Shown here one piece after another: positions 4,978 to 5,735 of a stretch of DNA of 48,684 nt. The stretch's first letter is position 1, and each line of letters starts with the position of its first letter. The stretch is from the IMG/VR virus record IMGVR_UViG_3300036766_000644, positions 1-48,684 of that record, one strand, 5' to 3'. A program made the translations under genes and the position numbers. The DNA comes from a virus. The notes under the pieces were generated by a model, which saw only the letters and a program-made list of their open reading frames with translations, searched no databases and was not told the origin of the DNA.

Positions 4978-5017
4978 CGCCCCTGCGCTCGTACAGGCAG
5001 GGGCGTTTCTTTTTTCT
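4978..5017 (+). terminator. intrinsic terminator
   Basis: Stem CGCCCCTGC / GCAGGGGCG followed by TTTCTTTTTTCT. Confidence 0.65.
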
Positions 5018-5028
5018 GATCTCTTTAC

Positions 5029-5037
5029 GGGTATAAG
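5029..5037 (+). promoter_or_regulatory. GGGTATAAG box (putative -10 element), copy 1
   Basis: Exact 9-mer placed immediately after a terminator and about 37 nt upstream of the ATG at 5074. Confidence 0.4.
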
Positions 5038-5073
5038 ATGTTGAGCACCCAATACCTAGGGAAGGGCTACAAA

Positions 5074-5349
5074 ATGGAAGTTGTTGCGTCCGTACCTGAA
5101 GTAAAGAAAAGCCGAAAGGCCGCCAAGAAGGCGGTCACCTGGGCCGAGGCTATCATTTCGGCTCTGCAAGATCCGGCGGTCAAGGGAAGCGTCGAAGCGA
5201 TGCTGGAGCGTCAAGCTCAAGTCGCGGCGGAGCGCAGTTTCGCAGGACAAGCGGGGAAGGCGTTCTCGGCGGTGACTGATCCAAGGTCGCTCGCTCTTTT
5301 GGAAGTGATGATGACGTTGCTCAAGGCGCAGGTTAACAAAAAGAGGTAA
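5074..5349 (+). CDS. hypothetical protein (91 aa)
   Basis: ATG at 5074 with RBS GGGAAGGG. The ATG at 5038 sits inside the putative promoter box and was rejected. Confidence 0.45.
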   Translation: MEVVASVPEVKKSRKAAKKAVTWAEAIISALQDPAVKGSVEAMLERQAQVAAERSFAGQAGKAFSAVTDPRSLALLEVMMTLLKAQVNKKR

Positions 5350-5355
5350 CACACA

Positions 5356-5640
5356 ATGCTGCTACGCACTGACAAGAAGGAGGATCAACGAGGTAGGGCG
5401 CGGCAGCATTTGCGTACCTACTTTGGAAACGACGTCCAGACTGACGTGGTAATCACCTCAGTCATACAACAGATCCAGAGACACAACGAACAACCTGGGG
5501 ACAAGCCGAAGTTGCACCCCATCGAGAAGCCGTCGAACCGCAGGAGGGTCTACGTGATGACTATCCTCGGGAAACTGTTTCGTGTAACGTACGACAACAG
5601 GCACAAAGAGCTGGAGGACATCCAGCCCGTAACAGAGTAG
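5356..5640 (+). CDS. hypothetical basic protein (94 aa)
   Basis: RBS AAAAAGAGG upstream of the ATG. Confidence 0.45.
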   Translation: MLLRTDKKEDQRGRARQHLRTYFGNDVQTDVVITSVIQQIQRHNEQPGDKPKLHPIEKPSNRRRVYVMTILGKLFRVTYDNRHKELEDIQPVTE

Positions 5641-5675
5641 TCCAGAAAAGAGGCTCCCGCATTGCGGCAGCCCAC

Positions 5676-5726
5676 GAAGCATCGGGCCCTTTCCCCCCTC
5701 CCAGGGTCCGATGCTTCGGTTTTTTT
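5676..5726 (+). terminator. intrinsic terminator
   Basis: Stem GAAGCATCGG ... CCGATGCTTC followed by GGTTTTTTT. Confidence 0.6.
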
Positions 5727-5735
5727 GGGTATAAG
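5727..5735 (+). promoter_or_regulatory. GGGTATAAG box, copy 2 (upstream of the tRNA cluster)
   Basis: Exact 9-mer abutting the terminator T-tract, about 60 nt upstream of tRNA-Thr. Confidence 0.4.

Follow-up and report, generated by a model that had tools for sequence, protein, structure and literature searches.

A conserved GGTAYnAG signal, often placed directly behind intrinsic terminators, as a probable promoter class of an uncultivated ~190 kb phage lineage

In T4-like phages, small intergenic elements that combine a terminator stem-loop with a promoter have been described as PeSLs (promoter-early stem-loops); they flank short genes without known function in a plastic region of the genome (Arbiol et al. 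2010, PMC2839356; Comeau et al. 2014, PMC4122927). In jumbo phages encoding RNA polymerase (RNAP), a conserved AT-rich motif of ~10 nt, centred near -10, is found upstream of early operons, and sigma-70-type -10 elements carry a nearly invariant T at their last position (PMC7598289). Promoters of the group-3 SigB/SigF type have the form GTTTAA-N14-GGGTAT (PMC9847131, PMC8346170).

The stretch of viral DNA analysed here, referred to as the window (48,684 nt, IMG/VR record IMGVR_UViG_3300036766_000644), carries four exact copies of the 9-mer GGGTATAAG, all on the + strand, compared with 0.09 expected from shuffles. Three of these, at 5029, 5727 and 18259, had been reported in a preliminary description of the sequence, which gave three as the total; the exact-match scan of the window added a fourth at 5975. 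A longer, conserved and promoter-like signal, (TAAA-N15)-GGTAYnAG-N4-TGARCC, has this 9-mer as its core, and the actual unit measures ~22-40 nt instead of the 9 nt proposed earlier. The composite GGTAYNAG-N3-5-TGARC was found five times in the window (4534, 5029, 5727, 7109 and 18259; 0.04 expected) and six times in 20.7 kb of the relative L050 (0.01 expected). A check for intergenic bias, suggested previously together with the 9-mer scan, placed all five composite sites of the window in intergenic DNA and on the + strand, each in the same orientation as the + strand gene or tRNA cluster that follows, with the non-coding share of the window being at most 11.6%. Strong intrinsic terminators (-20 to -30 kcal/mol) directly precede three of the five, and the remaining two are located in divergent gaps (7046-7174 and 18233-18350), where the motif occurs by itself. 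The features are as follows:

5029, 5727, 5975 and 18259, + strand: exact copies of GGGTATAAG
4476-4510, + strand: intrinsic terminator ending gene 3713-4453; 13-bp GC-rich hairpin and U-tract, -26.7 kcal/mol, z = -5.4, kept in relatives
4516-4555, + strand: unit A, promoter-like; TAAAAT 4516-4521, 13-nt spacer, core GGTATGAG 4535-4542, tact, TGAACCCCC 4547-4555
4979-5016, + strand: intrinsic terminator ending gene 4584-4961; -20.0 kcal/mol, U-tract
5029-5049, + strand: unit B, promoter-like; GGGTATAAG 5029-5037, atgt, TGAGCACC 5042-5049
5675-5726, + strand: intrinsic terminator ending gene 5356-5640; 16-bp hairpin and U7, -30.2 kcal/mol, z = -6.1
5727-5747, + strand: unit D, promoter-like; GGGTATAAG 5727-5735, tagg, TGAGCCCC 5740-5747
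5975-5983, + strand: fourth exact 9-mer copy, not a family member; codon run CGG GGG TAT AAG (R-G-Y-K)
7051-7078, - strand: canonical sigma-70-type promoter, contrast class; TTGACA-16-TATTAT, 11 of 12 consensus positions
7091-7129, + strand: unit C, promoter-like, in a divergent gap; TAAAAT 7091-7096, 13-nt spacer, core GGTACAAG 7110-7117, tctt, TGAGCCCT 7122-7129
18259-18290, + strand: unit E, promoter-like, in a divergent gap; GGGTATAAG 18259-18267, tcgac, TGAACCACCACCAACTTAG 18273-18291
19078-19110, + strand: intrinsic terminator closing the unit E cassette; 11-bp hairpin and U7, -23.6 kcal/mol

The copy at 5975 is a coding coincidence. It falls inside ORF 5900-6310, identified by a Pfam PDDEXK_5 match (3.6e-29) as a predicted inserted PD-(D/E)XK endonuclease gene, which is absent from relatives L017 and L001. 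The R-G-Y-K peptide encoded at this position is kept in cyanobacterial homologues with different codons, and no TGARC half was found at this copy. Hence the earlier statement that every copy is intergenic holds for the other three copies and fails for this one. Likewise, the distance of 35-60 nt to the next gene or tRNA applies only to the copy at 5029 (45 nt from the start of GGTA to the start codon), the corresponding values being 70 nt for 5727 and 91 nt for 18259; counted from the predicted transcription start, the distance to the start codon or tRNA is 31-77 nt across sites. The variants placed at 4527, 4536 and 18290 were a few bases off, the actual positions being 4524-4532 for GGGTAGAAT, 4534-4542 for GGGTATGAG and 18291 for GTATGAG. 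GGGTATGAG is a true family member; relatives do not keep GGGTAGAAT or the 18290 copy, and the candidates GGGTAGAAT (4524) and TAGTATGAGT (18288) were rejected as extra promoters on these grounds.

The motif was found at orthologous positions in at least six related metagenomic genomes in which the flanking DNA has diverged. These relatives belong to a ~190 kb phage lineage without a cultured relative, their proteins being 49-70% identical, and searches by megablast and tblastn against 50,697 phage records returned no isolate relatives. Across 21 sites in seven genomes, octamer positions G1, G2, T3, A4, A7 and G8 were each identical in 21 of 21 sites, while the downstream T, G and A were present in 20, 19 and 20 sites, respectively. 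The spacing from octamer to TGA was 4 nt in 16 sites, 3 nt in three and 5 nt in two, and TAAA/GAAA-N15-GGTAYNAG was seen in ~12 of 21 sites, with T-runs in the rest. Alignments of orthologous gaps display the motif blocks as invariant amid diverged surroundings; in the divergent gaps the motif is the only + strand block conserved across relatives, and it is also conserved in the gaps behind terminators. An additional 10 kb of the same region in L050 contains five more octamer copies, each with a hairpin before and an ORF after it, the signal being complete in four of them and its downstream half degenerate in one (5266). Copies within the genome have only ~25 nt in common (repeat families D1 and D6 cover 26 nt), which is expected for a protein recognition site and not for a repeated mobile sequence. 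A literature search for GGTATAAG returned primers and unrelated sequences only. Scanning IMG/VR for GGGTATAAG-N3-5-TGAGCCC gave 15 matches, all unrelated apart from the relatives; many of these correspond to one conserved coding stretch (…GYKDMSP…) in AT-richer phages and are uninformative on the motif.

In unit A, spacer base g4534 and the core together read GGGTATGAG, the predicted start is A4549 and the gene downstream spans 4584-4961; GGTATGAG is kept in the orthologous copies of L017, L020, L022, L023 and L026. At unit B, where GGTATAAG is invariant in five genomes, the ATG at 5038 chosen by the automatic gene call lies upstream of the predicted start (A5044), and the gene start should therefore be the ATG at 5075. 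The predicted start of unit D (A5742) is followed by a conserved leader and then tRNA-Thr (5798); its ortholog is L017 6459, and in L001, L022 and L051 the unit of GGTATAAG plus leader sits after tRNA-Gln. Unit C, a family member absent from the preliminary list, reads GGGTACAAG when spacer base g7109 is joined to the core, has its predicted start at A7124 with gene 7175-7768 downstream, and keeps GGTACAAG in L017, L001 and L022. Finally, unit E has a predicted start near A18275 and a two-gene cassette downstream (18351-19074); L001 keeps GGGTATAAG-ccgtt-TGAACCACCACCACCTTAG at this site, in a gap that otherwise differs, and has an additional ORF after the unit.

All four hairpins (4476-4510, 4979-5016, 5675-5726 and 19078-19110; -20 to -30 kcal/mol, z from -3.8 to -6.1) are GC-rich, end in a U-tract and lie on the strand of the upstream gene, as intrinsic terminators do; the strong terminators noted previously before 5029 and 5727 are among them. 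Compensatory changes affect four of ten stem pairs of the terminator before 5029 in five genomes, with pairing kept, so that structure is conserved over sequence. The terminator hairpin covaries, whereas the motif does not and is kept as sequence. A hairpin lies within 0-25 nt upstream of three of the five window sites and of most L050 sites. Since transcription must restart in the two divergent gaps and after the terminators, a + strand promoter is required in both settings.

We consider it likely that GGGTATAAG forms the central part of a class of promoters specific to the lineage of this uncultivated ~190 kb phage, and the motif probably starts rightward genes, early in infection. The suggestion that one phage-specific promoter element serves repeatedly as a module behind terminators is in line with the enrichment, position, strand and conservation of the motif. 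The layout is of an ordinary kind in phage regulation; it is the sequence that is unusual. The putative signal may be divided into an A/T tract (often TAAA 15 nt upstream), the invariant -10-like octamer GGTAYnAG and, 4 nt after it, an initiation region TGA(G/A)CC, the A of which, ~7 nt past the octamer, would be the transcription start. The rightward small genes and the tRNA cluster would thereby form insulated units, in which an intrinsic terminator would halt the upstream transcript and RNA polymerase would restart at the motif a few bases later. As to the reader, we infer an RNA polymerase holoenzyme making a -10-type contact on duplex or melted DNA without a canonical -35, and lean towards a bacterial-type holoenzyme with a sigma-70-family factor, which may be the host primary, a host alternative or a phage-made sigma. 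The motif is not the sole start signal, because + strand genes 1459, 3713 and 7844, which lie after terminators without the motif, have other conserved signals (TATACT or GGTATACAA).

In L017 the opposite-strand promoter (7051-7078) is kept as TTGACA-16-TAAGAT, and in L050 as TTGACA-16-TAATAT; a host-type signal (TTGACA-16-TAnnAT) thus looks different from the motif. Neither a TTGACA-like -35 element nor TG at -15/-14 was found at the motif sites, and a sigma-70 consensus scan of the window, L017 and L050 called none of them. The extended -10 sigma-70 promoter reads TGnTATAAT, and the T4 late promoter, also without a -35, reads TATAAATA. What the motif shares with these is a hexamer beginning with T-A, an AT-rich core in the -10 region and putative recognition through the -10 element only. 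Unlike the extended -10 promoter, it carries G-G and not T-G at -15/-14 (-14 is G in 21 of 21 sites; -15 is G in 17, T in two and C in two), and, compared with the sigma-70 pattern TAnnnT, it always keeps T-A at -12/-11 but has G at -7 in all 21 sites. This invariant G as the last base of the ‘-10 hexamer’ is unlike either a standard or an extended -10 element, as which the motif had originally been described, and argues against canonical sigma-70. We know of no gp55-like factor for this phage.

Other sigma classes were compared as well. The sigma-28 (FliA) promoter is TAAA-N15-GCCGATAA; TAAA/GAAA occurs 15 nt upstream of the octamer in ~12 of 21 sites here, but GGTAYNAG lacks the CGA core of GCCGATAA. 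For sigma-54, with promoters of the type GG-N10-GC (TGGCAC-N5-TTGC), the reading was rejected on spacing: GG and TTG stand one base too far apart, and TTG is followed by A instead of C. GGGTA(T/C) is present in all five window sites and in 17 of 21 overall, GGGTAT being the SigB-type -10 hexamer, and the 9 nt between hexamer and predicted start are within the range of SigB/SigF promoters. However, window sites have TAAAA or a T-run instead of a GTTT 12-17 nt upstream, the first G varies among relatives (present in 17 of 21 sites), and both the invariant A-G two and three bases past the hexamer and the TGARC block are outside the SigB consensus.

Like PeSLs, the units behind terminators consist of an intergenic stem-loop terminator and an adjacent putative promoter motif, and gene content between them varies among relatives. 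For instance, the family of the gene located between units A and B varies from one genome to another, the window and L017 do not agree in which genes lie left of 3 kb or in what order, and the promoter-plus-leader unit is found before tRNAs in two genomes and after tRNAs in three. Unlike PeSLs, which have a sigma-70-like promoter with -35 and -10 and share ~100 bp, enough for homologous recombination, the units described here have no -35, end the octamer in G and share ~25 nt. In addition, the phage is not T4-like, almost no similarity being detected by Pfam, PHROG or BLAST. With the early motifs of phiKZ and AR9 (PMC7598289) the signal has in common a conserved AT-rich block of ~10 nt near -10 of the predicted start, found by sequence alone and located before presumed early operons in a phage genome of very large size. 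It differs from them in motif sequence, in its conserved start region and often present upstream TAAA, and in that no phage polymerase gene was found in the parts of the lineage searched (window of ~48.7 kb and ~35 kb of relatives).

The last comparison bears on who reads the motif. A promoter whose reader is an RNA polymerase of the phage itself, perhaps brought in by the virion as for phiKZ/AR9-type early promoters, with host polymerase acting only at a few canonical sites, is an unlikely reading, in favour of which count the ~190 kb size of the lineage, the form of the octamer, similar to the early motif of RNAP-encoding jumbo phages (PMC7598289), and the separate canonical sigma-70-type promoter conserved on the opposite strand. 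None of three features, namely an unvarying G at ‘-7’, the absence of a -35 and the conserved start region, fits sigma-70. Conservation around the start is seen more typically with phage polymerases than with sigma-70 promoters. Against this reading, the beta'-type DxDGD motif is absent from all frames of the window, L001, L017, L020 and L022, no RNAP or sigma Pfam matches were obtained among scanned window proteins or L050 proteins, and four large window proteins gave no PDB sequence match. Pfam and PHROG scans of ~50 proteins revealed no sigma or polymerase, and no beta/beta'-like subunits were seen in the ~48.7 kb window and ~35 kb of relatives (genome ~190 kb). These negatives weigh little, since about one quarter of the genome was covered and such subunits are often undetectable by sequence. 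In a broader form, TAAA-N15-GGTAYnAG-N4-TGAGCC may be the recognition sequence of a phage-encoded transcription machine in this clade (a virion-delivered or early-made RNAP, or a sigma-like factor), the canonical TTGACA/TAnnAT sites alone being read by the unmodified host enzyme; we put this forward tentatively, as a possible but somewhat doubtful reading. An archaeal TATA/BRE reading was rejected on account of the covarying hairpin and U-tract terminators, the conserved -35/-10 promoter and the location of the invariant element at -10 and not -27. A PTH2-like ORF and a TAAAA element ~30 nt upstream had prompted that reading. Host searches across genome contigs gave no match with a conserved 246-aa protein and, with the endonuclease, only homologues in cyanobacterial metagenome-assembled genomes (61-63% identity), which are not host evidence because the endonuclease is of the homing type.

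Turning from the reader to the nature of the element, it seems very improbable that the motif is a site for a regulatory protein (operator), or another DNA-acting site, beside weaker promoters that escaped recognition. The consensus-variable positions are fixed per orthologous group (TATGAG, TATAAG, TACAAG), which suggests constraint beyond a loose -10 match, and the TGAGCC half, plus TGATC(A) 8-9 nt upstream in some sites, could be protein contacts. Yet the gaps behind terminators measure just 57-71 nt, with only a Shine-Dalgarno or tRNA leader conserved besides the motif in all aligned relatives, leaving neither room for nor trace of a separate promoter; moreover, the motif is not palindromic, is strictly oriented to the downstream gene, and looks like a melting element, having T-A as its third and fourth bases and a core that is rich in AT within a genome of 60% GC. 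Even less probable is that the conserved part acts in RNA, as a 5' leader, processing site or stabilising element, the TATAAG likeness at the DNA level being incidental. Conservation does run downstream of the octamer (TGAGCCCC, and TGAACCACCACCAACTTAG at 18273), and GAGCCC pairs with a downstream complement in unit C of both the window and L017 (by eye, and at L017 7326-7347 also in the terminator scan). The five window sites, however, have no common fold on inspection, in the RNAalifold result for group B the motif region pairs only weakly and with poor support, the octamer showing no covariation, and no Rfam family overlaps the motif; the octamer also directly follows U-tracts, where upstream transcripts end, and would be mostly untranscribed unless there is read-through. 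The notion that the repeats are functionless, left by chance or duplication, has next to no probability and is effectively refuted by statistics and conservation: one of the four exact copies (5975) is indeed a coincidence, but counts of 4, 5 and 6 stand against 0.09, 0.04 and 0.01 expected from shuffles, the sites are all intergenic and co-oriented with the downstream gene, and the motif is kept at orthologous sites despite the protein divergence.

Read as a promoter class, the motif makes it possible to model promoters and predict transcription starts in a lineage of giant phages that is known from metagenomes only and almost entirely unannotated, in which proteins match almost nothing known, and it corrects at least one automatic gene start (5038 to 5075). 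The small-gene region of the lineage would be built from insulated terminator-promoter units with cargo genes that differ among relatives. That the motif does not match the canonical sigma-70 signal found on the other strand raises a testable question, namely whether the phage has a transcription factor or polymerase of its own. If the signal is indeed read by a phage-encoded machine, its promoter specificity would be new, and this novel lineage of giant phages would follow a transcription programme of two classes.

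In the window, the + strand holds small genes between 1 and 13.6 kb and a two-gene cassette at 18.35–19.07 kb, genes elsewhere lie on the − strand, and hardly any of the proteins had a match in Pfam, PHROGs, PDB or isolated phages. Relatives were found in metagenomes only (three contigs of 168–190 kb and several short ones, with 46–77% protein identity across the genes compared), so that the window represents about a quarter of the genome of a giant phage from a lineage without a cultured member. Searches of genome contigs with the 246-aa protein (gene at 3713–4453) and the endonuclease described below did not identify a host. 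Proteins 23–39% identical to a 186-aa Cys/His-rich protein (1459–2019; MGCDIHFY…EHKHCGNC…) are encoded on 19 other viral contigs, of which several measure 260–450 kb; the close relative L017 lacks this protein (L numbers denote related metagenomic viral contigs).

The exact 9-mer GGGTATAAG occurred four times in the window, each time on the + strand (5029, 5727, 5975 and 18259), versus 0.09 copies in shuffles of the window. The preliminary description had listed three copies, all intergenic; this holds for 5029, 5727 and 18259, but the overlooked copy at 5975 lies within an ORF (5900–6310) matching the PD-(D/E)XK endonuclease family PDDEXK_5 (E = 3.6e-29), where it encodes R-G-Y-K. Cyanobacterial homologues keep the peptide KRGYKVALP with different codons (AGA GGA TAT AAA), and two related genomes, in which the flanking tRNA genes abut, lack the ORF. 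The 5975 copy is therefore coincidental, arising from the codons of a gene that was inserted here; it is not followed by a TGARC block. The homing-endonuclease-like gene (within 5900–6393, between tRNA-Thr and tRNA-Leu) has its nearest genomic homologues in cyanobacterial MAGs (61–63% identity). At this locus L017 has neither the ORF nor tRNA-Leu, and L001 reads Thr-Leu-Gln with no ORF.

The 9-mer contains the core of the element, but the functional unit is longer than nine bases: in the aligned sites the octamer GGTAYnAG is followed, after four bases, by another conserved block. The bipartite pattern GGTAYNAG-N3-5-TGARC matched five sites in the window, versus 0.04 expected. It brings in a variant flagged earlier at 4534, a true family member carrying both blocks, and a site at 7109 that had not been listed.

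Promoter-like units of the window
4535, +: unit A, GGGTATGAG at 4534, behind a terminator; predicted start 4549
5030, +: unit B, GGGTATAAG at 5029, behind a terminator; predicted start 5044
5728, +: unit D, GGGTATAAG at 5727, behind a terminator; predicted start 5742
7110, +: unit C, GGGTACAAG at 7109, in divergent gap 7046–7174; predicted start 7124
18260, +: unit E, GGGTATAAG at 18259, in divergent gap 18233–18350; predicted start ~18275

All five were intergenic, in a window with a non-coding share of at most 11.6%, and were oriented toward the next + strand gene or tRNA-Thr. The terminators reported ahead of 5029 and 5727 are sound (intrinsic hairpins of −20.0 and −30.2 kcal/mol, respectively, each followed by a U-tract). 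Besides the three sites behind terminators, the other two occupy the window's only two divergent gaps, so that a + strand transcript must begin within each gap.

In relatives, the motif was present at every orthologous position, within intergenic DNA that has diverged around it. Across 21 sites from seven genomes, octamer positions G1, G2, T3, A4, A7 and G8 were invariant, position 5 was T in 17 and C in four, and position 6 was free across sites, each orthologous group being fixed for its own variant (TATGAG, TATAAG or TACAAG). The downstream block read T (20/21), G (19/21), A (20/21), then R, C, C, after a gap of 4 nt in 16 sites, 3 nt in three and 5 nt in two; the first G of the 9-mer was kept in 17/21. 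TAAA or GAAA stood exactly 15 nt ahead of the octamer in ~12 of the 21, and at terminator-adjacent sites the terminator T-run took its place. A further 10 kb of the region in L050 held five more octamer copies, each preceded by a hairpin and followed by an ORF, four with the full bipartite signal and one (5266) with a degenerate downstream half; the composite pattern occurred six times in 20.7 kb of this relative versus 0.01 expected. It was not found in the stretch covered from two relatives at ~50% identity, which marks it as specific to a sub-clade. Two further variants proposed earlier were not conserved: four of five relatives have TGGAAG, TGGAAT, TGAAAC or TGGAAC in place of GGGTAGAAT at 4524, and TAGTATGAGT at 18288 reads TAGCCGGAGA in L001. 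Some units carry TGATC(A), which contains the Dam site GATC, 8–9 nt ahead of GGTA (window 5017–5022; L017 ~5721; L050 ~300, ~1126, ~3175); this could be chance, or a methylation-sensitive or regulatory element.

We regard it as quite probable that the motif is a promoter, as the preliminary description had proposed; its observation was largely right, and statistics, position and comparative conservation support it. This prediction is based on a short, oriented, non-covarying block, conserved in sequence, with a core that is AT-rich despite a genomic GC content of 60%, a position where transcription must restart, and gene-proximal spacing. The neighbouring terminator showed compensatory base changes, the motif itself being kept as sequence, and no Rfam family matched it. 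Cassettes within the genome share only ~25 nt, which favours a protein recognition site over a mobile repeat. With TAYnAG set at −12 to −7, transcription is predicted to start on the A of TGARC, 31–77 nt before the next start codon or tRNA. For unit B, the automatically called ATG 5038 would fall upstream of the transcript, so the gene would start at ATG 5075, behind GGGAAGGG.

Assignment to a sigma-70 or extended −10 promoter failed by definition: the last hexamer base was G in 21/21 sites (T expected), positions −15/−14 were G-G rather than T-G, and no −35 hexamer was present in the 21-site table. A standard host-type signal does exist in this phage and differs from the motif: within the gap at 7.1 kb the other strand carries a textbook TTGACA-16-TATTAT, conserved in relatives as TTGACA-16-TAAGAT and TTGACA-16-TAATAT with a diverged spacer. 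Relative to the SigB/SigF-type consensus GTTTAA-N14-GGGTAT (PMC9847131, PMC8346170), the first six bases of the motif in the window (GGGTAT or GGGTAC) match the −10 hexamer, but the GTTT −35 element is absent, so the motif does not belong to this class. Sigma-28 promoters resemble the TAAA-N15-octamer layout and differ in the octamer.

The reader of the motif is, in our view, more likely to be a bacterial-type holoenzyme carrying a sigma-70-family factor. A polymerase or factor encoded by the phage is a serious alternative, with which the odd G at −7 and the conserved start region are compatible. A review of giant-phage polymerases (PMC7598289) notes that in phages with their own polymerase a conserved AT-rich block of ~10 nt lies around −10, ahead of early operons, a description that the motif matches in form. 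No polymerase or sigma gene was found in the ~85 kb of the lineage read, which is only a fraction of the genome.

Conservation was also seen for other + strand signals, namely TATACT, in front of the 246-aa gene that begins at 3713, and GGTATACAA, 7 nt ahead of ATG 7844. The former is part of TTTTTAGCC-N8/9-TATACTG(G/A)GG, between a terminator and the gene (3640–3712; TATACT at 3671–3676). All relatives retain its TATACTG core, even the distant L027 (50% GC), which has a different upstream part; the signal probably represents another promoter class, serving the region's best-conserved protein. GGTATACAA (7829–7846, +) is kept in L017 and L001, and a 505-aa − strand gene has GGTATGGT (20626–20640, −) 6 nt ahead of its ATG, directly behind a terminator; both genes are candidates for leaderless or near-leaderless mRNAs. 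The TTGACA-16-TATTAT promoter (7051–7078, −) is followed 6 nt later by ATG 7045, out of frame with a PTH2-like ORF (6687–6977, −; Pfam PF01981, E = 3.4e-4, below cutoff), after which come two − strand tRNAs. The tRNA at 6473–6547 (−) received an undetermined two-base 'tt' anticodon loop call from ARAGORN, an oddity repeated in L001 and L017 (Rfam tRNA score 57.6 bits). Between unit D and tRNA-Thr, a leader AGAGCAGCGGCAAGTAAGCCCAGCTC(T/A)TTGTTTAG (5750–5790), nearly identical in L017, may form a stem AGAGC/GCTCT; in L001, L022 and L051 it follows tRNA-Gln and precedes a protein gene.

An ORF-free stretch of ~500 nt (8072–8565), between gene 7844–8071 and a DUF3846 gene, has counterparts in L017 (8259–8756), L050 (14140–14636) and L022 (~4446–4936), with 64% mean column identity over the four genomes and long invariant blocks including GAATCAAAGTAATCGC, GGCCAATCTGATCAGATCAGATTGG, AGTGATTCAAGCGTGAACTAG and GGATGTCCGGGCCGGAC. 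It contains three hairpins with covarying stems, has no Rfam match and resembles a structured non-coding RNA, or several of them. Hairpins with the conserved apex CCG-TAG-YGG numbered seven in the window versus 0.77 expected; four, in non-coding DNA, are predicted terminator-like stem-loops, and the same hairpins are present in L017 and L050.

CCG-TAG-YGG hairpins of the window
8089, 8280, 8462 and 11703, +
15345, −
17522 and 36850

The architecture is closest to the promoter-early stem-loop (PeSL) cassettes of T4-like phages, in which an intergenic stem-loop terminator is joined to an early promoter, flanking small orphan genes, and which mark points of gene exchange (PMC2839356, PMC4122927). 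Such exchange is also evident in this lineage: units A and B enclose a gene whose family changes from relative to relative, the families being unrelated or barely related; one relative has an extra ORF after unit E; gene content and order differ left of 3 kb; and the promoter-plus-leader unit precedes the tRNA genes in two genomes and follows them in three. Two features set it apart from PeSL cassettes: the promoter is not sigma-70-like, and the cassettes have too little sequence in common to allow homologous recombination. Promoter consensuses that are specific to a lineage and combined with terminators in the small-gene region of a phage are already known as a kind of feature; the novelty of the sequence here follows from that of the phage lineage.
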